Notes: generated by a model from the sequence alone, not told the origin. 64,000 nucleotides of DNA from an uncultured Candidatus Saccharibacteria bacterium (GCA_964527185.1 CAZGOI010000001.1:87166-151165); one strand, 5' to 3'; positions 43,570 through 63,062 are shown, counted from the stretch's first letter. Made by a program: numbers and translations.

Positions 43570-43710
43570 ATGTCTAGAACATATAAACCCAATAAAAGAA
43601 AGAGAGCAAAAACTCACGGGTTTCTTGCTCGTTCAAAAAAAGTTGGTGGACGCAATGTTACCCAAGCTCGCCGACGCAAGGGTCGCAAAAAAGTTTCTAT
43701 AAGAAAATAA
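43570..43710 (+). CDS. rpmH: 50S ribosomal protein L34
   Basis: [46 protein letters not shown]. It falls below the ORF-track cutoff and sits in the classic rpmH-rnpA position. Confidence 0.85.
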
Positions 43711-43711
43711 C

Positions 43712-45009: not shown

Positions 45010-45483
45010 ATGCAAGACAAGGTAAAAAAAACAATTGAAGAGATGTTTTCACGCACAGCATCTGAAATAACCAAGATTGAATTTTCTAATGAAGGAGGAA
45101 TGCTCTGGTGTCTAATTGAAACCCCAGATTCAAGATTTATGATTGGCAAAGATGGTGAAACACTGAGATCTATAAACCACCTTGTCCAAAAGATAATTGA
45201 AAAAGATCTCCCAACAGAGGATAGCACAGTAAAAATTCTTGTTGATATTAATGGCTATCAAAAGAAAAGATTTGATAATCTAAAAAATATTGCCCATATG
45301 ATGGCTGAGCGAGCAAGATATTTCAAAAGCAATATCGAAGTCGACCCAATGCCGGCATATGAAAGACGCATCGTTCACATGTTTCTAGAAGGCGCCCCAG
45401 ATATAAAAACAGAATCGGAAGGCGAAGGGCAAAATCGCCGAGTGGTTATAAAATACATTAACCCAAGCGAAAAAATTATTTGA
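45010..45483 (+). CDS. Jag/KhpB-like RNA-binding protein (KH plus R3H domains)
   Basis: It lies downstream of yidC and has the R3H motif (RRIVHMFLEGAPDIKTESEGEG). Confidence 0.75.
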   Translation: MQDKVKKTIEEMFSRTASEITKIEFSNEGGMLWCLIETPDSRFMIGKDGETLRSINHLVQKIIEKDLPTEDSTVKILVDINGYQKKRFDNLKNIAHMMAERARYFKSNIEVDPMPAYERRIVHMFLEGAPDIKTESEGEGQNRRVVIKYINPSEKII

Positions 45484-46795
45484 GATCTAGGCTCCATAGA
45501 GTGGAGTCTTTTTTATTTATGAAAAATAAAGAACTCTCGTCTTTATTTAAGAAAAGATTTGTCGCGTCAACCGCTGTTTCATCTAAAGAATCAGCTACCT
45601 GGTTTATGACACCATCTTTTGTGTTTATTTTTATAAAATGATCATCGAAAGACACCAAACCTTGATACCAAATATCCGGATAGCCACCATTTGTCATTGA
45701 ATTTGGAACCGCGCAATAGATATTTATATTATCACTACTCCAAATACACTTTTCTGGCAAGCTGTAAATATTTAAACTCTGGTTTGTATGACTTGAGATA
45801 TTGAATAATTCCAAGGTCGAACTTATGCCATCTGAAGAATTATATAAAACAAGAGACCCATCGCCATTTGCAAGCGTTGTCAGACCATCTACCCCACCAA
45901 AAACCTTTGTCACTACGTCATTTGCACTATTTAAAACAAATAAACTTCCTTGTGTTTGGGCAGATGGTTTGGTTGTAAGAAATATTTTTCCTGTGGAAGC
46001 CCACTGTGACAGCCACTCAGAATACGACGAGTTAAATAATTGCGAAACTTTTGCATCACTAAACGATCTTGTGCTACCAACTATTCCATTTACTGTTTTT
46101 ATTAAATAGAAAAATTTTGTTTTGTCAGGCGATATGCTCAAATCCTCAATATTATTTGGCAAAAATTCACCCTTTTGTTTACCCAAGCTTGCCATATAGC
46201 TCGTTATAGTTTTGTTGTCATCTGCCAAATATCTATATATCACAGTCTGAGCTTTTCCATCCCAAGTTGCATCGTGAACGCCTGGAATAGTTGAATTTGA
46301 TATCTCACCCTCTGTTTTATTGTCTAGATACATTTCATATATATGTCCAGTCGCCCGCTCGACATACCGCAACGCTGGCACGACTTCAACTTTTGGAACT
46401 AGAGCTTTTTTAGTCGCGGCCTTTTTACCATTCACTATAGCCGTGTTGTCGACGACAGGCCCAGATTGCGCTATCGGTCGAGTTTCGTCAAAATATACTG
46501 CTCCAGCAACTGCAAAATTAGTTATCGGGTGGAATTTTGTTACAGTGGTAGAAGATGTATCTCCTGTTTGTGTTTGACCCCCAGTACTATTATTTGCATT
46601 GTTCACACTATTGCCATTAGTTTGATTTGTATTTTGAGAATTATTATTACCAAAAGGGTTGAAAGAATTGTAACCACTAGTAGAAGAATTATTATTGCTC
46701 ACACCGCCTGATTTATTAGAATAGTAATAATAAAATATTACACCCACAACGATTATAAATACTACTATAAAAATGATTAATCTTTTTTTAAACAT
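45476..46795 (-). CDS. membrane-anchored hypothetical protein with an N/S/T/Q-rich linker and a beta-rich C-terminal domain
   Basis: An N-terminal transmembrane segment (LIIFIVVFIIVVGVIFYYYY) and a low-complexity linker. It is the last gene of the T4SS-like block. Confidence 0.4.
   Translation of the reverse strand: MFKKRLIIFIVVFIIVVGVIFYYYYSNKSGGVSNNNSSTSGYNSFNPFGNNNSQNTNQTNGNSVNNANNSTGGQTQTGDTSSTTVTKFHPITNFAVAGAVYFDETRPIAQSGPVVDNTAIVNGKKAATKKALVPKVEVVPALRYVERATGHIYEMYLDNKTEGEISNSTIPGVHDATWDGKAQTVIYRYLADDNKTITSYMASLGKQKGEFLPNNIEDLSISPDKTKFFYLIKTVNGIVGSTRSFSDAKVSQLFNSSYSEWLSQWASTGKIFLTTKPSAQTQGSLFVLNSANDVVTKVFGGVDGLTTLANGDGSLVLYNSSDGISSTLELFNISSHTNQSLNIYSLPEKCIWSSDNINIYCAVPNSMTNGGYPDIWYQGLVSFDDHFIKINTKDGVINQVADSLDETAVDATNLFLNKDESSLFFINKKDSTLWSLDLK
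45489..45519 (+). terminator. rho-independent terminator after jag
   Basis: ggctccatagagtggagtc hairpin followed by ttttttattt. Confidence 0.5.
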
Positions 46796-46808
46796 AAATA
46801 ATACTTAA

Positions 46809-47963
46809 TTAAAGCGCTGAACGCAAATAATTTACAGCTTCGACACCCTCCCCAGGTCTATCATCTAATTGCCTATGACAATATATATCAGATTTTGTTA
46901 TGTTTGGAAAAATCGATTGAAGCCTTTTTATTAATTTAACCAATGAATCTTTCTGGGGTTGTGTTAATGTTTGCCAATTATTATTTTTATCAGCCCGCAA
47001 TACCATCTCTATGCCAAGTGTATTACTATTAGAAAAACCAGCTGGAGCTTTGACTGGTGTAATATCAACAGGCGTTAGGCTAACTTGATTTAAATGAGTA
47101 TAGCTAAAATGATTAGCCCTCATATTTATTCTAACGACTTGCCAAACACTCCCATCTCTATCAATAATAAAATGAGCACCATTATCATTACAAGTAGCAC
47201 TACCATTATCTGTATGATTTTTACCACACAGTGCTTTACTAGGTGTGTCTGTGTTGTGGTCTATCCATGTGTACAAAGAATCTTGGGCTCTATAACCCTC
47301 GGTTCCGTGTATAACTATGGCTTTTACATCCTGTAAACCTGGCTTTTCAACGACATTAGTTATTTTATTTACTATCCAATTATCGGTAAGCACCCCTGAA
47401 CCAGATGTTTTTCCAACCTCAACATTAAATTTATTATCTGAAGCTGTGCTCATAATTTGATTAATTTGATTGCTAGTTAATGGTACTGGACTACTTTCAG
47501 CTACATCTTGATCTATATCTACACTCACCTGATCAATCGTCAGCCCATTTTGGCCTGTTAAGTCTGGATTTATTGTATATAGCAATGCATATGCGCCGAG
47601 GGCTATGAAAAGCCCAAGTATAGCAGCAAATATTCTTCCCTTAGCTTCCGTTTTTCCAAAAACAGACTCGGTTCCCATGTACTGCACCCCGCCGATGACG
47701 ATCATTATGACAGCCAGAACCCCACAGAGGCCTATCGCTACCAAAAATATTTTATTAAAATAATCCCCTATGCTATTAGTTTGAACAGTTGTCCCGAGCC
47801 CAGGGATTGGCGCAAGTAGTGTATAGCTATTTAAATCTGTACTCGGGCTCGCTCCAGGGCTTAATGGCACAGTTTTATCTCCATCTCCAGCTAAAACAAC
47901 CAATGGCAATAATAAGATTAGAAGTATCAAGCTCGGAATTAAATTTTCTATGAATTTCTTCAT
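46809..47963 (-). CDS. T4SS-pilin-like (VirB2/TrbC-like) N-terminal module fused to an N-acetylmuramoyl-L-alanine amidase (amidase_2/PGRP) domain
   Basis: A signal peptide, then YTLLAPIPGLGTT..NSIGDYFNKIFLVAIGLCGVLAVIMIVIGGVQYM..RIFAAILGLFIALGAYALLYTINPDL (two transmembrane segments, pilin-like). The C-terminal region HGTEGYRAQDSLYTWIDH..NGAHFIIDRDG..CHRQLDD carries zinc-amidase His, His and Cys ligands. Confidence 0.5.
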   Translation of the reverse strand: MKKFIENLIPSLILLILLLPLVVLAGDGDKTVPLSPGASPSTDLNSYTLLAPIPGLGTTVQTNSIGDYFNKIFLVAIGLCGVLAVIMIVIGGVQYMGTESVFGKTEAKGRIFAAILGLFIALGAYALLYTINPDLTGQNGLTIDQVSVDIDQDVAESSPVPLTSNQINQIMSTASDNKFNVEVGKTSGSGVLTDNWIVNKITNVVEKPGLQDVKAIVIHGTEGYRAQDSLYTWIDHNTDTPSKALCGKNHTDNGSATCNDNGAHFIIDRDGSVWQVVRINMRANHFSYTHLNQVSLTPVDITPVKAPAGFSNSNTLGIEMVLRADKNNNWQTLTQPQKDSLVKLIKRLQSIFPNITKSDIYCHRQLDDRPGEGVEAVNYLRSAL

Positions 47964-47968
47964 TTTAT

Positions 47969-48964
47969 TTATAAAGACAATTTAATTTGTGCGCTGGCTG
48001 TTTGGAAAAAAGCATTTAAATTTTCTAATACTAAACTAATGGTTGCATAACCACCGCGAGAAGTCGGCTGAACAGTCAATTCGGTTTTTTTAGTCGGGGT
48101 GTCTATATCCTCGCCATTTATTTGCCATTTGTAACTAAAATCCTTTTCATTTCCAGAGATAGCTAGGAAGTAGGGTTCGGCCACAATTGTAATTTCATTT
48201 TCACTCAGAAATGTATTGTCGGTTAAAGCGTTGTTGTATAACACACCCTCGGTCGGCGATTTTTTATAGAAAAGAATTTTTGGGCTGGTTATAGGTATGC
48301 TGATTTCTTTTGTTGTGTCATAGCCGCCATTTACTGTTGAGGCATTAACCGAAATATTTTCACTTTTATTAAGCTCACTATTTGCAAATATATAAGAATC
48401 TTTATTATATCCTGAAGCATCTTGCACAGAGTTGTCGGAATTTTTCCAATTATAAACTGCGTTTACCCTCCCGCCCTTGGTTGTTGTCGGCATTGCTACA
48501 GCTTTTATGACGCCACCACTTGAGATAAACGATTTGCCTTTATAAAAAGGCGGAGTATATGAATCAACTCCTTCCCAAAATATTTCTATTTCCGATGGGT
48601 TAATTCTTATCTCCTTGGTTATTTTATCGAGCGATCCCTCTGGTGTGATTGTCGCTGTAATGTCAGAAACGACATTTGGCCCAAGGGTTTTAAACGAATA
48701 ACTGATTTTACCAATACCCGAGAGCACCACCTTGTTACCACTTTGCCAGACTATCATTGCTTTGTTTAAATCCGTAGCATAGCTTGACAGGGTTGCTGTT
48801 ACGTCCTGATACGGCTCTGGGCTATCAGGGACAGTTGCTATATCGACGTCGCTATCTTGTAGGACAACGTCAGACAACGCCATAGATATTTTAGGCAGAC
48901 AAACTATGGCCAAAATAAAAATTAGAGAAAATAAGATTTTTTTGTGAGAAGCTACCACAACCAT
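47969..48964 (-). CDS. secreted hypothetical protein
   Basis: Signal peptide (ILFSLIFILAIVCLPKISMALS) and a beta-rich sequence, located inside the T4SS-like block. Confidence 0.4.
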   Translation of the reverse strand: MVVVASHKKILFSLIFILAIVCLPKISMALSDVVLQDSDVDIATVPDSPEPYQDVTATLSSYATDLNKAMIVWQSGNKVVLSGIGKISYSFKTLGPNVVSDITATITPEGSLDKITKEIRINPSEIEIFWEGVDSYTPPFYKGKSFISSGGVIKAVAMPTTTKGGRVNAVYNWKNSDNSVQDASGYNKDSYIFANSELNKSENISVNASTVNGGYDTTKEISIPITSPKILFYKKSPTEGVLYNNALTDNTFLSENEITIVAEPYFLAISGNEKDFSYKWQINGEDIDTPTKKTELTVQPTSRGGYATISLVLENLNAFFQTASAQIKLSL

Positions 48965-48999
48965 ATTATATGATATAGAGAATATATTGCCAATTAAAA

Positions 49000-50856
49000 T
49001 TATTTCTGGGCTTGGGTTACTTGGCTACTTTCTTGTGCCACCAGGTCGTCTTTTGCTTTCTTGATTGCCAATATTTGAGATGGATCAGAGGTTATTATCT
49101 GGTCTTCGGTATATGAGGCGATAGTTTTAACTGCTACATGCTTTAACCCAGCAAAGAATATTCCCTCGCCGACATTTGCCTCGAGCAACAAATATTTTTC
49201 CTCATCGGTTAAGTTAAAAGTTTTCTGCAGGACATCGACAGTCGAAGGCGACTGCTTTAATAGTAGCTGGATAGAAGAGTTTGTAACAATCGGCACACCA
49301 TAGGGGCTGCGCATAAAGTCACCCACGTCTTGGGTGATGGTTGCAAGACCGAGGTAGTATTTGCGCCCGCGCTTGGCTATCGAATAGAGAAATGATGCCG
49401 TATCTTCTGATTTCATCATCCACCAAGCCTCGTCTACCACGAGCAATCTCTTTTTAATATTTTTTCGAATTGCGTTCCAGATATAATGCGTGACGATATA
49501 CATAGCAACTGGTTTGAGTTCGTCTTCCATGTCTCGCACTGAGAAAACAACAAATTTTCTATTGATATCGACATTCGAAGGCTGGTCGAGGAACGATGCC
49601 CACGAACCATGAGTGAATTTTGCCAAACGTTGAATCAGCGATGCGCTGCCTTCCATGCCAGCCAAGACCATTTCGAAATCAGTCAGAAGCGGTGGCTCTA
49701 TATTTCTAAAATCAGATTCAGCCGTGATGTCTTTGAGCGCATATGTTTCGGTGATCGCTCGATCGATAATAGAGTCTTCTTCTGGTGTTAGGCCGCCAAG
49801 CATAATTCTGAAAAGACCCACGAGGTTTATAGTATTTGCGCGCAAAACATCGGCTGGTGTTTCATCTGAAGCAGGGATTGGCAAGTCGAACGGGTTGATA
49901 TGGTGATCTGAAGAAAGAGAAATATTAAAATATCTGCCACCGACAGCCTCTGAAAGGTATTCGTATTCTCGCTCTGGGTCTATGACGATGACCTCGGTGT
50001 CAAACATGAGCGTGCGAATGATTTCGAGTTTTGTCGCGTAAGATTTACCGGCGCCAGAAGTTGCGAACGTTATCGAGTTGTAATTTGGAAGTGAGAATCT
50101 GTCAAATATTATAAGGCTAGAATTGTGGCGGTTGACCCCATAGAGAATCCCTTTATCTGAGGTCAGATCAAATGAAACAAATGGAAAAAGACTCGAAAGA
50201 GGCTCGGTATTTAATTTTTGATGTATTCCGAGCAAGTCTGTGTCAAGCGGAATGATGCTCTTAAACGCCTCTACTTGCTGAAAAAGCGCTGGCTTTAAGT
50301 AAATTAATTTTGACTCAAGGAGCGATTTAATCTCATTTTCAATTTTAAACAAATCTCCCTCGCTGTCTGCGTAGATAGTGATGTATAGACCAACATCAAA
50401 CATTTTTTCTTGAGCCTGCATTAGATTGTCGCGCAAATCTTCTAGATCTTTATATGCTGTATCGAGCATTGGGTCACGGACAAGACCTTTTGACTCGCGG
50501 ATAGATATCTGGCTCTGAACCTCGGCGACTTTTTTCTGAAATGATCGCAATATATCTGCGGTATCGATCGGGTGAATAAAAATAGACACATCGAAAACCT
50601 TGTCGAGGTTTATTATTGGCGAAAACCAATTGTCGGTTAGATATCTTGGGTATGATATGACAAAAAAAGTTCTAGCGATTTTGTCGCCGAGATTTAGCCC
50701 TTTTGGTGTAATCTGTAGGGCCGATGGTGCGATGATGTCTTGCAGCTCGAGCGTCGCCGCCTTGTATATCTCAGACGGAATAACTGGCATCACAAGTTTA
50801 CTTTTTGATTTATCTACCGTGCTACCACCACCAAAAATTTTTGAAAATACGCTCAT
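49000..50856 (-). CDS. VirB4/TraC/PrgJ-family type IV secretion ATPase (ATPase domain)
   Basis: Walker A TSGAGKSYAT and Walker B LLVVDEAWWMM, with the conserved C-terminal region (GLATITQDVGDF). The VirB4 N-terminal domain is missing from this ORF. Confidence 0.75.
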   Translation of the reverse strand: MSVFSKIFGGGSTVDKSKSKLVMPVIPSEIYKAATLELQDIIAPSALQITPKGLNLGDKIARTFFVISYPRYLTDNWFSPIINLDKVFDVSIFIHPIDTADILRSFQKKVAEVQSQISIRESKGLVRDPMLDTAYKDLEDLRDNLMQAQEKMFDVGLYITIYADSEGDLFKIENEIKSLLESKLIYLKPALFQQVEAFKSIIPLDTDLLGIHQKLNTEPLSSLFPFVSFDLTSDKGILYGVNRHNSSLIIFDRFSLPNYNSITFATSGAGKSYATKLEIIRTLMFDTEVIVIDPEREYEYLSEAVGGRYFNISLSSDHHINPFDLPIPASDETPADVLRANTINLVGLFRIMLGGLTPEEDSIIDRAITETYALKDITAESDFRNIEPPLLTDFEMVLAGMEGSASLIQRLAKFTHGSWASFLDQPSNVDINRKFVVFSVRDMEDELKPVAMYIVTHYIWNAIRKNIKKRLLVVDEAWWMMKSEDTASFLYSIAKRGRKYYLGLATITQDVGDFMRSPYGVPIVTNSSIQLLLKQSPSTVDVLQKTFNLTDEEKYLLLEANVGEGIFFAGLKHVAVKTIASYTEDQIITSDPSQILAIKKAKDDLVAQESSQVTQAQK

Positions 50857-50859
50857 ATA

Positions 50860-51513
50860 TTATTCTAATTTTATGCCTTGGCTAATGTCGCCCGGGTTAA
50901 ATGTCTTGTAGAAAAGTTCGACAATTTCTTCAGTATTTAATTGGGTGCTGCGAATACCTAGACCTCCTAGCCCAGAAGTAATAACCCCGACACGTTGATC
51001 TAGCTGACTGCGCTTTTCTTCAAAGTCCGCCATATCCATGGATTTTTTTGTATTTGCGATCATTTGCTTTTCGGCTTTGCCGCCTAAAATCTTGTCGACC
51101 ACACCCTCAGTTGCCTTGATCGCGGTTGGGCTATACGGGACGACAACAAAAAAAGTTTTTGTCATGATATTCACTTGGTCGGTAAAAGATTTTATGAAAT
51201 CTATATACTCTCTCGTTTGGATTTTTAGCAATTTTTCATTCTGCTCTTTTTCTCGAGCTTCTAGAGTCAAGAGGTATGGCCTGATATCGAGACGGCGGGA
51301 TTGCACAACAATCTGAGTTGAAAAATCTAGCCCATTTAGAAAAGATTGAAACTGGCTGATAACAGCCTCTTGTTCCTCGCTTGATTTAAGCGACAAGTTA
51401 ATAGATGAAGCGATTAAAACAGCCCGAAGCCCGCCATCTTTGAGTACTATGACGCCATTGCGGATCTCTTTTATTGGCACAAATTCTTGCGCAGCCCGAG
51501 CGTTTAAAGCCAT
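50860..51513 (-). CDS. VirB4 N-terminal domain encoded as a separate ORF (split VirB4)
   Basis: EFVPIKEIRNGVIVLKDGGLRAVL matches the start of Gram-positive VirB4 homologues such as PrgJ and TcpF. It ends 3 nt before the ATPase ORF, in a different frame. Confidence 0.5.
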   Translation of the reverse strand: MALNARAAQEFVPIKEIRNGVIVLKDGGLRAVLIASSINLSLKSSEEQEAVISQFQSFLNGLDFSTQIVVQSRRLDIRPYLLTLEAREKEQNEKLLKIQTREYIDFIKSFTDQVNIMTKTFFVVVPYSPTAIKATEGVVDKILGGKAEKQMIANTKKSMDMADFEEKRSQLDQRVGVITSGLGGLGIRSTQLNTEEIVELFYKTFNPGDISQGIKLE

Positions 51514-51530
51514 TTAAATATTATATCACA

Positions 51531-51944
51531 CTAAATATTCTCTTTCTCTTGTATGTCTAAGCTCCAAGCCAGATCTTTGAGCGAACTTTTTGGCGCAGTA
51601 ACCGGCAAAACAGAAATTTGCCCTGCTTCGGCCTCCTCGCCTGATTTTTTATCAGATGGTTTTACTAGGCGTTGTTTCCAGACATAGAGTTTACTTGAAA
51701 TCAAGTAATTTATTCCAGCTTGCAAGTAGTAGATGAAAGGTTTGTTGTTTATCTTGTAAAAAACTAAAAGGGCGGTGAGTATGCCGACGGGGATTATGAT
51801 TAGAATTGCGATCCAAAACGGCAATAAACTATAGATAACATAGATCATACCCGCCCCACCAACCATATAGACAAATTGTCGGAAAGTGAAAGGCCCAAAG
51901 AGCTTGTCTTCGACATCGATAAACTGTGGGACTCTAAATTGCAT
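51531..51944 (-). CDS. PrgI/VirB3-like small T4SS membrane protein
   Basis: VPQFIDVEDKLFGPFTFRQFVYMVGGAGMIYVIYSLLPFWIAILIIIPVGI has the typical PrgI N-terminal motif and two transmembrane segments. It lies immediately upstream of VirB4. Confidence 0.5.
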   Translation of the reverse strand: MQFRVPQFIDVEDKLFGPFTFRQFVYMVGGAGMIYVIYSLLPFWIAILIIIPVGILTALLVFYKINNKPFIYYLQAGINYLISSKLYVWKQRLVKPSDKKSGEEAEAGQISVLPVTAPKSSLKDLAWSLDIQEKENI

Positions 51945-51962
51945 AATATTATTCTAACACAA

Positions 51963-53024
51963 CTATTCTATAGATTCCCTGTATGGGTCGCTTGATTTTG
52001 GGGTCTGTGTTGCAGCGGGCGGAGGAGTTGCCGGCGCGGTAGGAGAACTGACTTTTGGAGTTGAATGGTCGCTCGCAACTTGCTTGCTTGCCGTCGGCGC
52101 AGTCAACTTGCTCTTTATTATGTCGTGCATTAGATCGCCTGAATCTTCTTTACCATCATCAACCATTTCAATTCCTGTCTGTTTATAAATATTTTGTTCT
52201 AGTGTTGTTGGCGCCGGTGCAGATCTTACCCCAACTTCTTCTTTTTGAGGCATAGGGGTAACTACAGTAGCAGGCTTAATTTCGCCACCACTCATGTTCT
52301 GCAGATACGGAGGAATCGGGACTTCATCTTCATGTGCACTGCTCTTGGTTCCATCTCTATTACCCCAGTGAGTTTTTAAAATCTCCCTAATATTTTTCAA
52401 AATATTCTCATTTACTGAATCAACCAACTCGTTTACAGTTTCATCGGGCAAAGAAATTTTTGCCTTAAGTTCCGTCACGTATTTATCTGGGTGAATTATT
52501 CCAAGCAAGACTTTATTTGTCACCTCCTCAAAGACACCCATCTGCTCTATGGAAATTTTTTTACTCTCGGCGATATTGTACAGTTTCGACTGGTAGTTAG
52601 ATTCTACTATTGCATCTTGGACTTCTTTCGGTAATTTTGAAAATCTTTCATCTAGTTTATTTACATCTCCGTATTTTTCTTCTATCAAGTTCTGAACATT
52701 TGAAACAAATGTTTTCTCTAGATCTGGCCTAATATTTTTTAATATATTTTCATTTATCTCAACTACTATTTTATCAACAACATCTTTTGGCATATTCAAC
52801 TCACTAATCAAATTAGATTCATAATCTTCTGGGTGAACGATACCAAGAAGAACCAAGGTTGTTTCTGTGCCAAGATTTTCTATTTGTGTATCTTTCAAGC
52901 CATATCGCACACCTATACTTCGTAAAGTTTCCAGCCAAGACATACTTGAAAATGCCTGTTGAACGCTGCTCGGAAGTTTTGAATAATATAAAGCTATTTG
53001 TTGTTGTAATTGTGTTTTATCCAT
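51963..53024 (-). CDS. hypothetical protein with an internal tandem duplication of a ~55-aa domain and a Pro/Thr/Ala-rich C-terminus
   Basis: Repeat 1 is GTETTLVLLGIVHPEDYESNLISELNMPKDVVDKIVVEINENILKNIRPDL. Repeat 2 is GVFEEVTNKVLLGIIHPDKYVTELKAKISLPDETVNELVDSVNENILKNIREIL. Confidence 0.4.
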   Translation of the reverse strand: MDKTQLQQQIALYYSKLPSSVQQAFSSMSWLETLRSIGVRYGLKDTQIENLGTETTLVLLGIVHPEDYESNLISELNMPKDVVDKIVVEINENILKNIRPDLEKTFVSNVQNLIEEKYGDVNKLDERFSKLPKEVQDAIVESNYQSKLYNIAESKKISIEQMGVFEEVTNKVLLGIIHPDKYVTELKAKISLPDETVNELVDSVNENILKNIREILKTHWGNRDGTKSSAHEDEVPIPPYLQNMSGGEIKPATVVTPMPQKEEVGVRSAPAPTTLEQNIYKQTGIEMVDDGKEDSGDLMHDIIKSKLTAPTASKQVASDHSTPKVSSPTAPATPPPAATQTPKSSDPYRESIE

Positions 53025-53036
53025 AATAATTATTTT

Positions 53037-55814
53037 TTAATGATGCCCTCCTCCACTTGCCTTACCGCTCCCACTACTATTATGATCTACTTTGACATCA
53101 ACATTTATTGATTTTAAGGAGTCACTAAGTATGCCACTCAAATCTTTAAAGAAATCTTTTTGTGCTGTTCCATGGTCGATGCCACTTAAACCACTCTTAA
53201 GCCCTTTTTTAATTGCACTTGATGCACTAGCGGCCATCGCAAGACCAAATACTGGTAGGATTCCTCCCATCCCCGCCATCGCAAGACCACCAGCCGTTAA
53301 CCAGCCACTTGGTTTGGTTTTAGCAAGTTCGCGTATGTCGTAACTACCTTTTCTTAATGATCTCACGAATTCACCAACAGCAGTACCTGCTTCTAAGGCC
53401 GCCTTCATATCTCCTGCAGTATGAATATACTCACCTCTCGTAGCTGCGTTACCTCGAGCAATTTCAGCTGCATGAGCAAAATTACCACTTGGATCAGCTG
53501 TAAATATTCCAGTTGCTGCATCATAATAACCCTTCATTCCATCAACAATTCCTCTTTGTGCAACATCGAGTTTTTCATAAACTTTGTTAAAGGTGTCCTT
53601 TGAATATATATCTCGATCAATTCTATCTTGTGCTAATTGTTTTTGGTCATCAGTAAGATCCTTATAGGTTGAATCATCCTTGCCAGTAATTTTTTGCGCA
53701 GACTGGTTTAATTCGTGTTCTGCATGAGCTTTATCATCAACACCCATTTCCCTTCTTTGGAACCAATTTGTTGTTTTACCAGTAATAGGGTCTGTTTTTT
53801 GTCCTACTTTATTAAATCCTGCCGCTATTCCTGCCATACTAGCTTTGCCTGTACTGGTAACAGCCTTTCTGGCGAGATTTAAGTATGCAAATGGATTAAT
53901 GATATTCGCACCCCTTATTTTACTTGCAGCATCTCTGACATCTTGAAATCGTAAAGCATTTTTTCTTGCTCCATCATTTTGCGTATACTTCGCAACTGCC
54001 CCAACTGTTTGTCTTCCAGTAAATGCAGTAGTCAATGCAGCCCCACCAATAGCCAAGCCTCCGCCAACAACCGCCGCTTTTGTAACTGCGCTACCAACAT
54101 AACCAGCAAATTCCACTGCTAACCTTTTAGCCATATTCAGAAGTATGATGATGAATGCAAATGGCACAATAATTGAGATTATTAGGTCTAAACCACTTCG
54201 ACCGCTTATATCTAGGAATGAAGACGAACATTCGGTTACACTAGGATCGCAAGCATTTGTTCCCAAAAATGCTATTATTAGGTACATAAAGAAGATGAAA
54301 ATTGGAGCCAAGAATGCAAATTTAAAAAGATTTGGCCACCACTTCTTCCACCCAATCATGTTGACATTTTGTATTACTGGCACTGCGTAAGAAAAGAATG
54401 CAAATGGCGCAAATATCATAGTAAGCCAGAGCCCAATAACCCGCGAGACAAATATCAAACCAACAGTAAAAAAGACAAATAGCCCCACAATATTAGTAAC
54501 ACTTGCAAGAATTGTTACTAATATAAATGTCCAAGTATCTATACCCTTAGTATTAGTAGTCGAAGCACCAGCTTGCCCTCCCGTATCTCTGGCAACATTA
54601 CCAACTTTGGCAGCATCTAGGATTAACCTCTGGGGATTTACCTTTTTGACGATAGCAACTGAAAGCGGAATTACGCCATTGTTGTCATTTGAATTATTAT
54701 TTGTTTGATTTGTTTGCTGCCCCGTCGCCGATTTATTTGGTAATGTATTTACTATAATAGAACTTGAATTATAAAAAACCCTGGCCAAAATATTTGAAGT
54801 ATCTATGATAACCTGCGTCGCGAAAAGACTGAAGTTTATTAAAAGACCAATGATAACAACATTGATGATCATTTCTTTGGTTTTAAATCCATGAATCCGC
54901 AGGATCGTCGAAAAAGCAATGTATAAAAGGACGAATATGAAAAACATATTCACAAAATCCTTGACTATTTTCCAACCTTGCAAAACAAAAGCGCTACGAT
55001 ATGATGTATCTGTTATAGAATACTTGAAAGTAAAATCAAAAAACTTACCGGCAATCCCAAACAATGCAGATGTTGGAACAAAGAAGAGCGAGTATATCAC
55101 TTGAGCTATACACCCCGGAACACTGATAAAACCATTTGTGAACCCAAGCCAACACGACGGCATATAGCCGTCTTGGCCTATCGATCTAGAAATTGGTTGT
55201 GTATTTTTCGAGTTATCAATAGTTTTTCCAGTATCAGCTGTTGTGACTGGAATATTTGTCTGTAGAACTGTCCCATCGGCTGTAGTACCACTAAATCCAA
55301 AATAACTGACATAATAAGTTTTGTTTGCAATTAAATTATTTTGTATAGTAACTGGTTTTTGAACAGGTGTACCATCATCTTTTAATGCCAAGCCACTAGT
55401 AAAATAATTTTGATCCAAAAAATGAGTATTTGCTGGTACGGAAAATAATTTTGTATAATCAAGTTTAGGATAACCCCCACTACCCTCAAGAAGTTTTGTA
55501 AGACGTTGTGCCCCTATTTCAGTATATAGTTCATTTAAACCTGCATTACTCATAGAAACTTGGTTGTCTGTAACGATGTAAAACAACCCATGATTCTCTG
55601 TAGTCGTGTACCTGGTTACATCAAATCTTATATCAATAGAATGGTCTGTAGAACTCAACCAATAAAGACTCAAATCAAAATCCCCAGCCTCTGCTACAGA
55701 TTTTTGAACGACCGGTGTGCTGTCTTTGATATCTAAGCTAAACGGTACAAACAAGTTTGCAAAGATGAGGGCTATTAGAACTGGTGGTAGAATTTTTTTA
55801 ATCATTTTTACCAA
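53037..55814 (-). CDS. 925-aa polytopic membrane protein, VirB6/TrbL-like candidate
   Basis: A signal peptide and large N-terminal ectodomain. At least six transmembrane segments mid-protein (..FAPFAFFSYAVPVIQN.. resembles the VirB6 conserved region). A ~400-aa Ala/Gly/Lys-rich C-terminal domain. Confidence 0.4.
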   Translation of the reverse strand: MVKMIKKILPPVLIALIFANLFVPFSLDIKDSTPVVQKSVAEAGDFDLSLYWLSSTDHSIDIRFDVTRYTTTENHGLFYIVTDNQVSMSNAGLNELYTEIGAQRLTKLLEGSGGYPKLDYTKLFSVPANTHFLDQNYFTSGLALKDDGTPVQKPVTIQNNLIANKTYYVSYFGFSGTTADGTVLQTNIPVTTADTGKTIDNSKNTQPISRSIGQDGYMPSCWLGFTNGFISVPGCIAQVIYSLFFVPTSALFGIAGKFFDFTFKYSITDTSYRSAFVLQGWKIVKDFVNMFFIFVLLYIAFSTILRIHGFKTKEMIINVVIIGLLINFSLFATQVIIDTSNILARVFYNSSSIIVNTLPNKSATGQQTNQTNNNSNDNNGVIPLSVAIVKKVNPQRLILDAAKVGNVARDTGGQAGASTTNTKGIDTWTFILVTILASVTNIVGLFVFFTVGLIFVSRVIGLWLTMIFAPFAFFSYAVPVIQNVNMIGWKKWWPNLFKFAFLAPIFIFFMYLIIAFLGTNACDPSVTECSSSFLDISGRSGLDLIISIIVPFAFIIILLNMAKRLAVEFAGYVGSAVTKAAVVGGGLAIGGAALTTAFTGRQTVGAVAKYTQNDGARKNALRFQDVRDAASKIRGANIINPFAYLNLARKAVTSTGKASMAGIAAGFNKVGQKTDPITGKTTNWFQRREMGVDDKAHAEHELNQSAQKITGKDDSTYKDLTDDQKQLAQDRIDRDIYSKDTFNKVYEKLDVAQRGIVDGMKGYYDAATGIFTADPSGNFAHAAEIARGNAATRGEYIHTAGDMKAALEAGTAVGEFVRSLRKGSYDIRELAKTKPSGWLTAGGLAMAGMGGILPVFGLAMAASASSAIKKGLKSGLSGIDHGTAQKDFFKDLSGILSDSLKSINVDVKVDHNSSGSGKASGGGHH

Positions 55815-56656
55815 ATATTAATTGCTTGCTCTAGGTCGCTAAAGTTTGGCAGATAAAACGCTCCTGGTGTTGTGTTTGGGTCGCTGTAATATGGATTGTC
55901 TTTAACTGTCTGTGGGCCAGTGTATCCTGGGTCGGCTTTTTGGGCTAGGCACTGTGTCGTCAGTTCTGTTGCTTGGTCGATGAGAGATTGGTTTGAAATA
56001 ATATCATTGTCAACCAAAGTTACATCGTCTTCAGTTTTAAGACTTGGCGCGATTAGATAATATTGTTGCAATAAATCATCCAACTGTTTTTTCTCACTCT
56101 CGGTAAAGACGAGAGGGTCATCGATCTGGCAGATTTTTGTTGGTGCAGGTGCGGGTACTGGTGGCCCACTAGGTCCACCACCAACCGTACCACCTGTTCC
56201 AGTTGTACCCGTGTTTGTCAGACCCCAACTTCCTGGAGGTGGAATAGGGTTAAACTGTGGAGTTATAGCGTTGAAATTATTATTGTTTGCAAAACTTCCA
56301 GTAGAACCAAAAGTACCACTTTGGCCAAAACTTCCACTTGAATTTAAATTCCCAGAATTAAGACTACCGCTAGCACTAGAATTGTTACCCGCGGCTATCG
56401 AGTTACTATTTTGCCCACCTATCGTTGATGTCGAACTAGTATTGTTTGTGGTTTGACTATTATTTAACGCGTTCAAGTCTTTTGCTTTAGATGAACCAAG
56501 GAGTGGCGAAAAAGTTTTTGTTATGTTTTCGGAATTTTTTGTGCCAAACAACTGGTTACCATTTTTGAAAATAAAATAGGCTGCCACAACAAGCACAACA
56601 ACAGCCACGATTGTGATGATTAATGCTCTGCTTTTTTTAGGGTTATGATCGTCCAT
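55808..56656 (-). CDS. membrane-anchored low-complexity (N/S/T/G-rich) hypothetical protein
   Basis: An N-terminal transmembrane segment (ALIITIVAVVVLVVAAYFIF), a low-complexity linker, and a Pro-rich segment (PSGPPVPAPAP). Confidence 0.35.
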   Translation of the reverse strand: MDDHNPKKSRALIITIVAVVVLVVAAYFIFKNGNQLFGTKNSENITKTFSPLLGSSKAKDLNALNNSQTTNNTSSTSTIGGQNSNSIAAGNNSSASGSLNSGNLNSSGSFGQSGTFGSTGSFANNNNFNAITPQFNPIPPPGSWGLTNTGTTGTGGTVGGGPSGPPVPAPAPTKICQIDDPLVFTESEKKQLDDLLQQYYLIAPSLKTEDDVTLVDNDIISNQSLIDQATELTTQCLAQKADPGYTGPQTVKDNPYYSDPNTTPGAFYLPNFSDLEQAINIW

Positions 56657-56659
56657 AGA

Positions 56660-58576
56660 TTATTTTATAGTGTCACCATCTTTATATGTGACCCTCTCCA
56701 TTAGTAAGCAAGACGCTTTATATGCTGGCAGGCCAGCGGCAACTCTTTTTGCATTTCTTCTGTCTTGAGCGGCGATCATGATGGTGTTGACTTTGTCTTT
56801 AATGATTTTTAATTTCGCCATATTAGAATTGGTTTGGGCAAGCGCATCTGTGTAATCACTCTTTGCTTGGTTAATATTTTCCTCATCTGTTGTTATATCT
56901 TTTGTTAAAGCTAAACCATCAGGCGACATCGCTAGGTACCCACCACCACTTGATGGGTCTTGCATTGACCCGTAGGTAGTGTCGATAGCACTTTGGTAAT
57001 CATTTAATTTCTGATCTAAAGTTGCAGGGTCGATCGGCCCTGGATTGCCAGTTGAAAGCGAATTTATATATGCGGTTATAGAATCGGCAGAATTGTTTCT
57101 CCAATTTGAATTTGGTCCTGGTATGCAGTAATCGAGTTTGCCAAGAGTTGGCAAAATTTTATCTACAACATCCATAGATTTCTTCAGATCATTTATATAA
57201 TTGACTTGGATTTGTATAACACCATTTTTAATAATCTTGCCATCGTCATAGGTATTGCCGAGATCTTTTGTTAAATCAAAAGATCCACCGCTTGCGCTAA
57301 AACCACCAGAACCACCAGCGCCACCGATACCACTAACCCCACCCGTATTTCCTGCCCCACCATTGTTATTATCAGACAACCAAATAGGTACTCCATTTGG
57401 GAATAAATTAGAACTACTGCTAGGGTTTAAACCTTCAAGGCCTTGTTTTTGAAATTTTGAAAGCAAAGCCGAAAACAAAGCATTCAAAGCATCGTTGACC
57501 GTCTTAACCATTTCAAGTTGTCGCTCAGGAGAGTTTATATAAGTTGCAATTTTATCTTTAATGGTACTACCAGGAGTTATCGTTTGTTGTTTTATACATA
57601 TATCTGTTGGTGTACCAGTTGTTGAAGTTTTCTCGGTCCCATCTTCATTATATTCAGGCTGATTGTTTGCATCGACAGTTTGCCACTCGACACATTTTTG
57701 CTGATCAATATAACCACCATTTCTATTTATCTGATCAGTTGTTTGTTGGACAGCAGTAGCTTGTTCATCTGATATATGTTGCGACCAGCGATATGTAGAA
57801 CCCAGAGGATTATTTTTATCATCTTGTGTTAAACCAAACCAACCTTCCCAACCACCAGCTGCAAAATCCTGAGAAAAATCTTGAATAGTTTGTCCTGGTT
57901 GGAGATAATTGGTAGTTAAATCCTGGGTCATCGATTGAGAAAAATTTCTGACAGATTGCTGAGCATTTATTGCACCCTGAGCAAAAGTTCTACCATATGG
58001 ATAATCAATTGAAGCATTTGTTCCTTTGAACAAACCAGTCTCTTTTTGAAGGATTTTATTTGTAATACTGTCCATGAATGAATTTACATTCTGAACATAA
58101 AGCGGGTCGCCGTTGAATCCAGTATTGATCCAATTCATTGTGTACTTTGTCATGGCTGTTAACTGGTTTTTTGCAAGTTGTATCGCTATGCCACTCAAAC
58201 AATCAGTGCTAAATTTTGCAGAATCTAATTTTGCTTGCGTTGTAGCATCACTAACCTGGACTTTTTCTTTTATATTTAATAAATTGTTTATCCCTTTTAT
58301 TATTGCAGTTTGTAATTTTGTTGCCGCCTTCTCTATTACACCAGTTAAGCCAGTACAACCAACCACACTTGTCAAAAGCCCTGCACTTAAAACACCCCTG
58401 AGTGATATTTTGTATGGGTTATTACCGTTTTGATTTGGGTTGTCATAGTTTAGAGGGCTAGAGGTCGTACCAGCCAAAGCTATCGGTATTGATTGTGTTG
58501 AAACCAAAGATAAAACAATCATCACCGAGATTATTGCTTTTGAAGTAGGTTTCTTTTTCATATAATACGCAAACAT
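56660..58576 (-). CDS. secreted hypothetical protein with a Gly-rich internal region
   Basis: Signal peptide (AIISVMIVLSLVSTQSIPIALAGT) and a GGAGNTGGVSGIGGAGGSGGFSASGG segment. Confidence 0.4.
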   Translation of the reverse strand: MFAYYMKKKPTSKAIISVMIVLSLVSTQSIPIALAGTTSSPLNYDNPNQNGNNPYKISLRGVLSAGLLTSVVGCTGLTGVIEKAATKLQTAIIKGINNLLNIKEKVQVSDATTQAKLDSAKFSTDCLSGIAIQLAKNQLTAMTKYTMNWINTGFNGDPLYVQNVNSFMDSITNKILQKETGLFKGTNASIDYPYGRTFAQGAINAQQSVRNFSQSMTQDLTTNYLQPGQTIQDFSQDFAAGGWEGWFGLTQDDKNNPLGSTYRWSQHISDEQATAVQQTTDQINRNGGYIDQQKCVEWQTVDANNQPEYNEDGTEKTSTTGTPTDICIKQQTITPGSTIKDKIATYINSPERQLEMVKTVNDALNALFSALLSKFQKQGLEGLNPSSSSNLFPNGVPIWLSDNNNGGAGNTGGVSGIGGAGGSGGFSASGGSFDLTKDLGNTYDDGKIIKNGVIQIQVNYINDLKKSMDVVDKILPTLGKLDYCIPGPNSNWRNNSADSITAYINSLSTGNPGPIDPATLDQKLNDYQSAIDTTYGSMQDPSSGGGYLAMSPDGLALTKDITTDEENINQAKSDYTDALAQTNSNMAKLKIIKDKVNTIMIAAQDRRNAKRVAAGLPAYKASCLLMERVTYKDGDTIK

Positions 58577-58588
58577 ATTATATCATTT

Positions 58589-59479
58589 CTACTTTATTTT
58601 GTCTGATAATTGGCCCATATCTACCACGAGCGCATCGCTATAATTCTTGTAATTGACGATTGCCTTCATTGCTATAATCGGGTCATCGAAAACTTTTCCT
58701 AGATCATCTATGGTTTTTGCCATCTTATCGTAATCATTGGCCAAATGCAGGTTGCTCGACACAAAATCTATTGGTACTTCGACTTTCATCAAATCACTGC
58801 CGAGCGATCTGTATACCCCGGCTACTAGACTCATCTGTTTTAAGGCTCCAGTGTCGTTGTCTCTTAAAGCAGTCGCTAAAAAGTTTAACTCATTGCCCAT
58901 GTTTTTGTTTTGGTATTTATCATAGATAGCCTTTAGGGATTTATAATATTTTACCGAAGAAGCCGAATCGCTACCCCTTGCAATTGTGACCATGTCTTTT
59001 GTGTATGAATCAGGAAGTGGTGTGGCGGTAATTTGCTCGCCGATAGAATCGGAAATAGCCCCGAGCGATGCGTCGTCCAAGTTTCCACTTTGTTCAAGCG
59101 ACATGAGGACGGCGAAAAATTCTCGAGAAAGAGTTTCGTTGTTGTTGACCGGTGCGCCACTTGCCAAGACCTCTGCATCGGTTGCGCTTGGATCAGCGTT
59201 TGACAGTGCCCTCCTTCTGGCCAAAATGTATTCTTTGTTCTCGGGGCCATTTTTTGTTGGGTCTAGCCCCCAAAGATTTTCTTCCCAGTCTGGTATACCG
59301 TTTGCATTGCTATCTTTTTGAACCAATTCTTTAACTTCAATTTTTTTTGCCGTTTCAATATCTTTACCTGTTTGATAATTTTTTATCAAAATAGAAACCA
59401 AAACTACAACTACAACACCTATTATGATAGCCGCGACTTTAAACAAAAATTTTTTACTCGGTAAATAATTTACTGCCAT
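58589..59479 (-). CDS. membrane-anchored hypothetical protein
   Basis: An N-terminal transmembrane segment (FKVAAIIIGVVVVVLVSILI). Confidence 0.35.
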   Translation of the reverse strand: MAVNYLPSKKFLFKVAAIIIGVVVVVLVSILIKNYQTGKDIETAKKIEVKELVQKDSNANGIPDWEENLWGLDPTKNGPENKEYILARRRALSNADPSATDAEVLASGAPVNNNETLSREFFAVLMSLEQSGNLDDASLGAISDSIGEQITATPLPDSYTKDMVTIARGSDSASSVKYYKSLKAIYDKYQNKNMGNELNFLATALRDNDTGALKQMSLVAGVYRSLGSDLMKVEVPIDFVSSNLHLANDYDKMAKTIDDLGKVFDDPIIAMKAIVNYKNYSDALVVDMGQLSDKIK

Positions 59480-59480
59480 A

Positions 59481-59987
59481 CTATTGTCCTATTTGTAAAC
59501 TTTGATTTGTGCTAACGCCATAATTATCTGTTGTTTTAAAAACTGGTATTGGTATTTGGGCGGGGCCAGCTGTGATGTAACAAGTTTTTAGATCTGGTAT
59601 TAATTTTTCATTGCCAAGAATTTGTTTACCTGGAATTGGCACCTTGCGCGGATTTGTTGTGTACGTAGGTATCATTTTATATATACCAGCAGCTATCCTA
59701 ATAGCCTTTGATTTTGATGGAGCACTAGCTGCGGACTTGGCTATGTCAATTAAACCAGATATGTTGCTAGTCAATAACGTACTTTTACCAATACCTGTGC
59801 ATTTTATAAAAGGAATGGGAGCTAAAATTATTGTTCCACCAAAAGATTTTAAAAGTGGAGAGCTAGCCCTGACCGTACCAGATAGTGTTACAGCCCAAGT
59901 TTCTCTGGTGAAAAGCAAAAAAAAGACTAAAATCAAAAGAGAAAATGATATTTTTGAATAATTACTAGTCACACCATGATTATACAA
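59481..59987 (-). CDS. small secreted hypothetical protein carrying a LAPIP motif (possible pilin-like subunit)
   Basis: An N-terminal hydrophobic segment. TIILAPIPFIKCTG echoes the LLAPIPGLGTT motif of the pilin-like protein at 46809..47963. Confidence 0.35.
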   Translation of the reverse strand: MYNHGVTSNYSKISFSLLILVFFLLFTRETWAVTLSGTVRASSPLLKSFGGTIILAPIPFIKCTGIGKSTLLTSNISGLIDIAKSAASAPSKSKAIRIAAGIYKMIPTYTTNPRKVPIPGKQILGNEKLIPDLKTCYITAGPAQIPIPVFKTTDNYGVSTNQSLQIGQ

Positions 59988-59996
59988 CTTGGTAGG

Positions 59997-60803
59997 CTAA
60001 TTTCCTATATATTTAGATAGATATTTATTCATTTCAAGCCATGTATCTAAGCTTAAATCTTCGGCTCGAGTATTCTCTTTAATTTTTAAGTATTCAAACA
60101 TCGATTTGATTGATTCTTTACTTATTAAACCTTCTAAATTTTTCCTTAACACTTTTCTTTTGTGGGCGAACCCAAGTTTTAAAATATCAAAAAACAATTT
60201 TTCTGATTTTTTATCGGTAAAGTTTTCATCAGAAATATTTTTGATTGCAATAATAGCTGAATCGACTTTTGGTATCGGCGAAAAATATTTTTTACTAACC
60301 TTCATTATGTATTTTGGTTGCCCATAGGCCTTGACCGAAAGCGACAAAATACTCTCTTTGCCATCCCGCGCGACGATCCGTTCAGCTACTTCTTTTTGTA
60401 CAAGCATTACCATGAATATGGGTTTAATATCGCTTGATAAAAATTTTTTAAATATTGCGCCGGTTATGTTGTATGGAATATTTGCGACAATCTTCCAATT
60501 ATCTTTTCTTGAAAAATATTTTTCAACTTCAAATTCGAGTGCATCGCCTTCTATCAATCGCAATTTTTTATTCTTTATTTCAACTTCAAATTTTTTAGAA
60601 AGTATTTTTACAAGTTCTCGATCTTTTTCAATGGCAATTACTTCCACGTTATTTTCAAGAAGTTTCTCTGTTAGCGCTCCTTTGCCGGGGCCAATTTCCA
60701 AAACAATGTCTTTGCCCGTCAACTCGGCTGCGGTGCACATTGCATTTAATGCAAGTTTCGACTTTAAAAAATTTTGACCCAATGATTTTTTTGCCTTATG
60801 CAT
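59997..60803 (-). CDS. rsmA: 16S rRNA (adenine1518/1519-N6)-dimethyltransferase RsmA/KsgA
   Basis: KKSLGQNFL..VLEIGPGKGALT..ANIPYNIT. Confidence 0.85.
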   Translation of the reverse strand: MHKAKKSLGQNFLKSKLALNAMCTAAELTGKDIVLEIGPGKGALTEKLLENNVEVIAIEKDRELVKILSKKFEVEIKNKKLRLIEGDALEFEVEKYFSRKDNWKIVANIPYNITGAIFKKFLSSDIKPIFMVMLVQKEVAERIVARDGKESILSLSVKAYGQPKYIMKVSKKYFSPIPKVDSAIIAIKNISDENFTDKKSEKLFFDILKLGFAHKRKVLRKNLEGLISKESIKSMFEYLKIKENTRAEDLSLDTWLEMNKYLSKYIGN

Positions 60804-62756: not shown

Positions 62757-63062
62757 TTAACCTATATCTGCCATTATTTCAGTTGCTTCATTTCGAATTT
62801 TTTCTGCTTCCTCGCCGACTATCTGGTCGATGTTTGGTATTTTTTCTACTAAAAATCCGAACATTGCCTCGGGGTCGGGATTTTCGTCTATGAGTTTCTC
62901 GAAAGCATCTTTATCTTCTTCACTCAAAATATCAAGCACTCGCAACATGACTTCTTGGTAGACTATCGCCCCGAGTCGTTCTATAGCCTCCCTCTGTTTT
63001 TCGGGTGGCAGAGAATCTATGCCTAGAGTTTTTATTACATTTTCATTTATTTTATTAAACAT
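62757..63062 (-). CDS. small acidic hypothetical protein (DUF5663-like)
   Basis: A 101-aa helical, Glu/Asp-rich protein. Confidence 0.4.
   Translation of the reverse strand: MFNKINENVIKTLGIDSLPPEKQREAIERLGAIVYQEVMLRVLDILSEEDKDAFEKLIDENPDPEAMFGFLVEKIPNIDQIVGEEAEKIRNEATEIMADIG

Follow-up and report, generated by a model that had tools for sequence, protein, structure and literature searches.

The 64,000-nucleotide stretch of DNA analyzed here (the window), from an uncultured Candidatus Saccharibacteria bacterium (GCA_964527185.1 CAZGOI010000001.1:87166-151165), harbors a block of twelve minus-strand genes that includes a gene for a VirB4 ATPase. With a probability of roughly 0.85, this block is a Patescibacteria chromosomal type IV secretion system (T4SS), derived from conjugation machinery of the monoderm MPF-FATA class and located in a Paceibacteria (Nomurabacteria-like) genome, that is probably non-conjugative and more likely moves macromolecules between the epibiont and its host. 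An earlier note on this DNA had proposed a chromosomal, non-conjugative, Gram-positive-style VirB4 apparatus of episymbiotic candidate phyla radiation bacteria. That proposal is upheld by the family of the VirB4, the order in which the hydrolase gene stands, synteny, and the lack of a relaxase or coupling protein (T4CP) among the open reading frames (ORFs) scanned in the window.

The earlier note also considered the system poorly described, but the same system is the subject of two studies (Quiñonero-Coronel et al. 2025, Microbial Genomics, PMC12102498; Wang et al. 2023, Cell, PMC10633639). Most Patescibacteria have a monophyletic VirB4 related to that of monoderm MPF-FATA systems. TrsD is its commonest neighbor, PrgI/VirB3, VirB6 and VirB2-like pilins are also encoded near virB4, VirB8 can hardly ever be detected, relaxases are almost always absent, and T4CP genes are seldom nearby; in Paceibacteria, the locus adjoins dnaA, dnaN, rnpA and ksgA (PMC12102498). 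Transposon sequencing of Southlakia epibionticum found the homologous cluster, which has pilins and lacks a coupling protein and a relaxase, to be essential for growth on the host (PMC10633639).

The VirB4 of the window matches NCBIfam NF045971 (CD1110 family) with 364 bits (cutoff 325) over profile positions 183-732 of 752, as well as Pfam P-loop_TraG (84.5 bits) and AAA_10, and is closest to the monoderm CD1110-type family. Its sequence contains Walker A (GAGKS) and Walker B (VVDEAW) motifs, and the ATPase is catalytically plausible. A VirB4 search using one genome per species returned 561 relatives, the best 80 of which form the basis of all locus counts below (counted by tblastn, which under-counts genes far from virB4, many loci being truncated). 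These 80 are 74-94% identical to the VirB4 of the window and come from Paceibacteria, Nomurabacteria or Parcubacteria metagenome-assembled genomes, some of them loosely labelled Saccharibacteria, and the best plasmid VirB4s are only 27-36% identical to it. Such identities place the protein very likely in the Patescibacteria VirB4 clade.

Directly upstream of virB4, a 217-amino acid (aa) ORF matches NF041427 TrsD (E 6.9e-10) and also positions 2-119 of the CD1110 VirB4 profile, and a Pfam match to PF26593 (TraC-like) is precomputed for its product. When aligned to the unsplit 804-aa VirB4 of a Brevibacillus plasmid, the VirB4 covers residues 222-770 (31% identity over 557 columns, E 1e-79) and the 217-aa protein covers residues 72-141 (E 8e-4), indicating that TrsD and VirB4 together are collinear with a normal VirB4. 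In the window the two genes share one frame, and TAA, one codon and ATG form their junction. In the relatives they are separate ORFs wherever the junction is measurable, with gaps of ~1-486 nt (in two cases apparently a short overlap) and in each of the three relative frames; TrsD is conserved in 79 of the 80 loci. Because the genes are separate, occur in every frame and lie up to 486 nt apart in relatives, the split is taken to be an ancestral two-gene arrangement, and by the same comparison the shared frame here is a coincidence. Thus, of the earlier description of a VirB4 encoded as two ORFs, the ATPase stands, while the "split" is a pair of conserved separate genes, trsD and virB4. A frameshift or pseudogene, read-through, recoding, and an assembly or sequencing error at the TrsD-VirB4 stop were also considered and are ruled out by the varied frames and gaps of the relatives. 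An alternative genetic code was rejected as well, since table 11 yields long ORFs and the stop in question is TAA.

The next protein, called PrgI/VirB3-like in the earlier note, indeed matches Pfam PrgI with 40.8 bits (above the cutoff) and TcpE with 31.7 bits; it is hydrophobic at residues 27-67 and matched in 75 of the 80 loci. The 925-aa protein g925, annotated as 922 aa in the public record and matched in 60 of the loci, is a polytopic protein with a VirB6-like predicted core. Its model has an FN3/Ig-like ectodomain (~25-212), a helical membrane core (~232-590) and a helical C-terminal domain (~596-830). A Foldseek search of the PDB yielded no significant match for this model, and an hhalign comparison of the g925 family with a hypothetical protein encoded two genes upstream of prgI on the Brevibacillus plasmid was negative. 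PF19590, a TrbL/VirB6-like family precomputed for some homologues, was not reproduced by hmmscan even at E<=10 and was not used. The exact 925-aa protein, like the 638-aa protein g638, is already in public databases (P0001 and P0121, respectively).

Opening of the cell wall is the role of VirB1, and it is probably filled here by a 384-aa fusion protein. As the earlier note had it, this protein joins a T4SS-pilin-like domain to an amidase: Amidase_2 is matched with 60.7 bits and T4SS_pilin with 24.9 bits, slightly below the cutoff of 26.6, and the latter family is matched by 59 of 73 positional orthologs at E<=0.001. NCBIfam Mbov_0395 pilin-like, a family of Mycoplasma integrative conjugative element (ICE) proteins, is matched at E 2.5e-4. 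Transmembrane segments are found at residues 3-32, 67-98 and 109-133, and the Lys/Arg-rich loop between the helices would, by the positive-inside rule, place the amidase outside the membrane. A putative peptidoglycan hydrolase of the kind expected in an MPF-FATA system is encoded two genes after virB4, predicted on the extracytoplasmic side. The pilin core is matched at the pilin position in 69 of the 80 loci. With its 249-aa enzymatic C-terminal extension, the fusion departs from the small canonical VirB2/TrbC form (~70-130 aa).

Extensions of this kind are common among relatives. More than 100 aa follow the hairpin in 66 of the 73 complete positional orthologs. An independent hairpin-only query against 1.84 billion cluster representatives returned 14,666 relatives, of which the best 149 were considered and 108 scanned with Pfam; the median length of these best 149 is 457 aa, and only three are shorter than 200 aa. 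The domains found are varied (Table 1); judged from the summed family counts, a cell-wall enzyme domain is probably present in about two thirds of the 108 scanned representatives. In the closest relative (L001), the ORF in the pilin slot (L001:12899-14488) has an SLT-like motif, recognized by eye, in place of the amidase. Since varied enzymes follow a conserved hairpin, the architecture is best described as a hairpin plus a swappable peptidoglycan-active enzyme, of which the amidase form is a rare variant. The N-terminal extension of the pilin-slot proteins (L001-L080) is variable too and sometimes contains Ig, TIG or filamin-type domains. Two proteins of ~615 aa each (P0242 and P0243) have four separate stretches matching the pilin-hairpin query, P0242 with an SLT domain in addition, and each looks like a pilin array fused into one polypeptide. 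A phmmer search with the amidase domain alone found no PDB relative.

Table 1 Pfam families matched by positional orthologs of the pilin protein and by cluster representatives from the hairpin query (number of proteins matched per family; rows overlap, since one protein can match several related families; blank, not listed).
Family	Positional orthologs	Cluster representatives
T4SS_pilin	59/73	93/108
NlpC/P60	13/73	10/108
VanY	7/73	41/108
YkuD	4/73	9/108
SLT	2/73	8/108
SLT_2	2/73	2/108
SLT_4	1/73	
Amidase_5	3/73	1/108
Amidase_2	2/73	2/108
Peptidase_M15		2/108
Peptidase_M15_4	1/73	1/108
3D	1/73	
CHAP		1/108

Hairpin-enzyme fusions are not mentioned in PMC12102498, and no other paper describing them was found in the limited literature searched; the frequent fusion of a pilin hairpin to interchangeable peptidoglycan-active enzymes is possibly a new detail of these systems. 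An unlikely but consequential extension is that the Paceibacteria VirB2-like hairpin is more than a simple pilus subunit and serves as a conserved anchoring or delivery module for interchangeable enzymes (amidase, NlpC/P60, VanY/M15, YkuD, SLT, CHAP) that could be displayed on or along the T4SS and breach or remodel the host wall too. If true, the T4SS pilin would support an arrangement resembling polymorphic toxins, in which enzyme swaps follow host wall chemistry.

In essentially all full-length relatives the gene order is ksgA-g296-g638-(g282)-g925-g353-prgI-trsD-virB4-g331-pilin-g439, followed by jag/yidC/rnpA on the opposite strand and dnaA-dnaN (gene names as in Table 2). This fixed order across many Paceibacteria genomes indicates a vertically inherited chromosomal locus and not a mobile element. 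In each of the 47 genome pairs compared, VirB4 identity exceeds DnaA identity (median 79% versus 64%, mean difference 15 points); as the loci were picked by VirB4 similarity, the absolute VirB4 identities are inflated, while the comparison with DnaA within pairs is still informative. The envelope proteins of the block are 27-41% identical and are among the fastest-evolving genes of the region. Strong purifying selection on the motor combined with fast-evolving surface parts fits an essential motor.

A Pfam scan of the window covered 37 of its largest ORFs and found no relaxase, T4CP or integrase among them. The repeat search found short imperfect repeats only, with no oriT-like, flanking or attachment-site repeats. 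Both results agree with the earlier observation that no relaxase, VirD4 or oriT-like repeat occurs in the block. Given that neither a relaxase nor a coupling protein is in view, the system probably does not conjugate, and its cargo is probably not conjugative DNA.

Several points weigh against the assignment as a non-conjugative T4SS. The scan omitted ORFs shorter than 180 aa and six of 180-202 aa, a range in which small relaxases could fall. VirD4-like genes are often far from virB4 in Patescibacteria (PMC12102498), so that with a view of 64 kb a distant coupling protein is possible. No VirB8-like component was identified, the block proteins and their orthologs giving no match to VirB8, PrgL or TcpC; the bitopic proteins g296 and g282 are VirB8 candidates. 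The pilin domain falls just under the Pfam gathering threshold, amidase activity is predicted from the Amidase_2 family match, and the function of the whole is assigned by homology, with its substrate and direction of transport conjectural.

Comparison with known systems is consistent with this assignment. Like the Patescibacteria T4SS, including the Southlakia cluster SEML1_0006-0019, the block combines VirB4 and an adjacent TrsD with PrgI/VirB3, VirB6-like and VirB2-like pilin proteins, has no relaxase or nearby coupling protein, and lies beside dnaA, dnaN, rnpA and ksgA. Southlakia differs in having an array of 6 pilins, whereas a single pilin-domain gene, fused to Amidase_2, is present here; arrays of 2-11 pilins occur most often in Saccharimonadia and Microgenomatia. 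The accessory genes g439, g331, g353, g638 and g296 are Paceibacteria-specific and uncharacterized in PMC12102498 and PMC10633639. The CD1110-type conjugation module of Firmicutes plasmids and ICEs, exemplified by the Brevibacillus borstelensis plasmid (NZ_CP144923), contains the best-scoring VirB4 family and the same order of PrgI, VirB4 and peptidoglycan hydrolase. However, its VirB4 is a single 804-aa protein, its hydrolase is a large NlpC/P60 protein, and MobC, a relaxase and VirD4 (CD1115 family) are encoded within 8 kb of PrgI-VirB4-NlpC/P60. Compared with diderm VirB/Trw systems (R388 Trw, Agrobacterium VirB), the block lacks matches to VirB5, VirB7, VirB8, VirB9, VirB10 and VirB11, the cell is monoderm, and the pilin has large extra domains. 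In the pGO1/pIP501 subclass of MPF-FATA, the gene order is TrsC-TrsD-TrsE-TrsF-TrsG. The block resembles this subclass in its gene order (VirB3-like protein, TrsD, VirB4, one further gene, cell-wall hydrolase) and in having no outer-membrane core. A separate TrsD before VirB4 is reported for that subclass only (PMC12102498). In contrast to pGO1/pIP501, the block has no relaxase, coupling protein, topoisomerase or surface adhesin, is chromosomal and non-mobile, and has its hydrolase anchored by a pilin-type hairpin.

All recognizable parts of the block have homologues among conjugation proteins, the plasmid proteins most similar to its VirB4 belong to conjugative modules, and some Patescibacteria, if few, carry relaxases (PMC12102498). 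The block could accordingly be an ICE, intact or decayed, that has lost its relaxase, coupling protein and integrase or encodes them beyond the window. We regard this as highly improbable, and synteny essentially excludes it: the order is fixed between ksgA and jag/yidC/rnpA/dnaA in dozens of species-level genomes, with the housekeeping neighbors diverging in step. Moreover, no integrase, flanking repeats or GC shift is seen in the window, and a VirB4 under stronger constraint than DnaA is unlike a remnant in decay. A nucleic-acid importer comparable to Helicobacter ComB or archaeal Ced, feeding a cell unable to make nucleotides, is also improbable, though not without attractions. VirB4-based importers exist, the VirB4 of the window has weak NCBIfam matches to CedB and CedD, Patescibacteria lack nucleotide synthesis, a 2026 preprint ties VirB4 to macromolecule acquisition in an RNA-feeding parasite, and the window also encodes RecG, RuvB, PolA and UvrD. 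However, these repair genes are ordinary housekeeping neighbors, and no DNA-binding or nuclease component is recognizable in the block. Competence of Southlakia requires comEC and type IV pili, and deletion of comEC abolishes competence while viability is kept; the T4SS, which has no relaxase or coupling protein, is essential (2025 review, PMC12857230). Among the roles suggested in the earlier note, DNA uptake as the essential one is disfavored, given the viability of the comEC deletion.

The block could instead serve mainly as an organelle for envelope remodelling or attachment, in which VirB4 drives the insertion or extrusion of pilin-anchored peptidoglycan enzymes and of adhesins, without any cargo entering the host. 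This would suit the fusion of the hairpin to diverse peptidoglycan-active enzymes in most relatives, the Ig-like, probable TolB-like and probable PG-binding partners, and the lack of a coupling protein for substrate recruitment among the ORFs scanned. Nevertheless, a VirB6-like channel protein is kept, VirB4, TrsD and PrgI are strictly conserved, as would equally be expected of a translocation motor, and we know of no VirB4 system that acts solely in this way, leaving the organelle a doubtful explanation.

The remaining seven position-conserved proteins belong to no named family; six are envelope or secreted proteins and one is probably cytoplasmic. The earlier note saw no recognizable homologue for its unknown proteins, but hundreds of positional orthologs exist in Paceibacteria, though again without a named family. 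Profile searches of the PDB with the g925, g638, g331 and g439 families gave nothing under E 0.08. The best conserved is g331, matched in 78 of the 80 loci and narrow in ortholog length (311-386 aa in 73 of 74 ORFs). It has an N-terminal hydrophobic segment, and weak aBig_2, Ig_3 and PKD_3 matches in g331 and its orthologs suggest that it is probably built of Ig-like domains. The last gene, g439 (66 of 80 loci), always adjoins the pilin gene and encodes a transmembrane segment at residues 1-28. Its family matches TolB weakly in the PDB (E 0.26). Among 91 pooled g331 and g439 orthologs, PD40 repeats occur in 3 and PG_binding_1 in 5; the output does not give the family of origin, and we assign these matches to g439.

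Between g925 and prgI lies g353 (44 of 80 loci), which has no transmembrane segment or signal peptide. It consists of an internally duplicated ~90-aa helical unit and a Pro/Thr-rich tail, and it ends in DPYRESIE; the motif DPYxE, which closes a consensus pooled from g296, g353 and g282 orthologs, is attributed to the g353 family for this reason. As probably the sole accessory protein of the block in the cytoplasm, g353 is a candidate VirB4 adaptor. Neither g353 nor g282 has a family match in Pfam or NCBIfam, orthologs included; g282, with a transmembrane segment at residues 6-34, is poorly conserved and detectable in 8 of the 80 loci. The position of g638 is fixed (47 of 80 loci), and none of its 194 homologues is named; the public annotation is 620 aa. 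Following an N-terminal hydrophobic segment, AlphaFold2 predicts long helices with a mean pLDDT of 64, and no significant PDB match was found by sequence or, with this low-confidence model, by fold (Foldseek). It may be part of a wall-spanning stalk or tip. Adjoining ksgA, g296 (33 of 80 loci) has a transmembrane segment at residues 6-38. TSP3_bac is matched by 5 of 81 pooled g296, g353 and g282 orthologs, and these matches are assigned to the g296 family because the motif DSNANGIPDWEE is present in g296.

The smallest accessory protein, g168, is matched in 1 of the 80 loci. The earlier note listed it as a second small LAPIP-motif T4SS part; the letters LAPIP are present, but g168 has a single N-terminal hydrophobic segment, no transmembrane hairpin, and no match to a pilin or other family. 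The slot next to ksgA holds small secreted ORFs like g168 in L001, L002, L013, L032 and L058 and is empty in many loci. These proteins align with g168 and have in common FGG, one Cys and YG-S. From this comparison, the g168 family is small, fast-evolving and optional, and g168 is not a pilin.

A working model can be put forward, its steps drawn from general T4SS knowledge and its parts, topology, conservation and context from this analysis. PrgI and TrsD would dock the VirB4 hexamer at the membrane, where the VirB6-like g925 would form the channel. The amidase, kept at the assembly site by its pilin hairpin, would open the cell's own peptidoglycan locally, in the VirB1 role. The secreted proteins (Ig-like, beta-propeller and helical) may then assemble the portion of the machine that spans the wall and touches the host. 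The pilin hairpins may or may not polymerize into a tube; tubular structures that may be T4SS pili have been reported where a parasite meets its host (2026 preprint). The assembled machine would more likely move proteins or other macromolecules between epibiont and host, as proposed for the Southlakia epibionticum homologue.

The minus-strand ORFs run unbroken from 45476 to 59987, with spacings of 1-35 nt or short overlaps (Table 2). The earlier note placed twelve genes in 46809-59987. The co-directional run is as described, but this range contains 11 ORFs; the twelfth is the ORF of g439, 13 nt downstream of it and conserved in synteny. Thus, g439 is part of the block and its last gene. Upstream on the same strand are ksgA/rsmA (59997-60803), a UvrD/PcrA helicase (60806-62743) and a DUF5663 protein (62757-63062). 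The other end of the block converges on jag, yidC and rnpA (43712-44026), past which lie dnaA (42088-43437) and dnaN (40785-41882), so the block is directly beside the replication-origin gene cluster. The GC content of the block is 0.37-0.41, similar to the remainder of the window.

Table 2 Genes of the T4SS block, with positions in the window.
Feature	Position	Strand	Evidence
g439, 439 aa: transmembrane helix, Asn/Ser/Thr low-complexity linker, probable TolB-like beta-propeller	45476..46795	-	transmembrane prediction, synteny, weak domain matches
Pilin-amidase fusion, 384 aa: signal peptide, T4SS_pilin hairpin ~47-135, Amidase_2 211-366	46809..47963	-	Pfam, NCBIfam
g331, 331 aa: secreted or anchored, probably Ig-like domains, directly downstream of virB4	47969..48964	-	hydrophobic N-terminus, weak Pfam
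VirB4 ATPase, 618 aa, without the usual N-terminal domain	49000..50856	-	NF045971, P-loop_TraG, AAA_10
TrsD/TraD-family protein, 217 aa, homologous to VirB4 N-terminal domain	50860..51513	-	NF041427, PF26593
PrgI/VirB3-like membrane protein, 137 aa, likely VirB4 tether	51531..51944	-	Pfam PrgI, TcpE
g353, 353 aa: probably cytoplasmic, two ~90-aa helical repeats	51963..53024	-	no transmembrane segment or signal, sequence
g925, 925 aa: extended VirB6-like protein	53037..55814	-	predicted core
g282, 282 aa, bitopic: transmembrane helix, Asn/Ser/Gly/Thr low-complexity region, short C-terminal domain	55808..56656	-	transmembrane prediction
g638, 638 aa: secreted, mostly helical, conserved cysteines, Gly-rich linker	56660..58576	-	hydrophobic N-terminus, synteny, AlphaFold2
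g296, 296 aa, bitopic: transmembrane helix, TSP3-like calcium-binding motif DSNANGIPDWEE, helical domain	58589..59479	-	transmembrane prediction, motif
g168, 168 aa: small secreted protein of a variable, optional family; signal peptide...FGG...Cys...YG-S	59481..59987	-	hydrophobic N-terminus

Around the origin-type genes, GC content falls to ~0.30 in 40001-44000 (dnaN, dnaA, rnpA), and the sign of the GC skew flips near 42-44 kb. Between dnaA and dnaN there are only two DnaA boxes, each with one mismatch, and the DnaA-box search found no enrichment across the window. Should dnaA-rnpA mark the origin, transcription of the T4SS run would point toward it and meet replication head-on. The 3' ends of g439 and the convergent jag overlap by 8 nt within 45476-45509, and a hairpin with a T-run that resembles a terminator, positioned for jag, lies inside the last codons of g439. 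Two AT-rich 32-nt stretches that resemble each other (48958-48993 and 58570-58605), each with near-consensus -35/-10 hexamers, end right before the start codons of g331 and g638. These could be internal promoters giving leaderless or near-leaderless transcripts of the two genes. Promoter and terminator scans found sites no more numerous than in shuffled sequence, and Rfam found tRNAs only.

The uvrD-ksgA-T4SS adjacency is kept in relatives, the UvrD/PcrA-type helicase being the second gene upstream on the same strand. PcrA aids relaxase-driven unwinding in some Gram-positive ICEs; the helicase here is most simply a housekeeping copy. Elsewhere, the window encodes RecG, PolA, RuvB, a class I (Trp/Tyr-type) tRNA synthetase, a histidine kinase and a probable penicillin-binding protein, the last recognized by eye from its sequence. 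Type IV pilus genes, for a PilM-like protein and a PilB/T2SSE-type ATPase, are found at 13704-15326 and 32992-34713, indicating that the organism has both surface machines reported essential in Saccharibacteria. Three large ORFs (7191-9317, 21483-23735 and 29754-31988; 708, 750 and 744 aa) have no Pfam match or a DUF11 repeat only and possibly encode surface proteins.

A large part of bacterial diversity belongs to the Patescibacteria, which live attached to other cells, and their T4SS is among the few machines shown to be essential for the epibiotic lifestyle. The window adds no new system; it offers a clean, complete Paceibacteria example with a defined set of 12 genes, from a class with hardly any cultured members. 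If confirmed, the hairpin-enzyme fusions would account for the seeming absence of separate VirB1 genes from most such loci, and would open a way to test how one or two cell walls are crossed by the machine.

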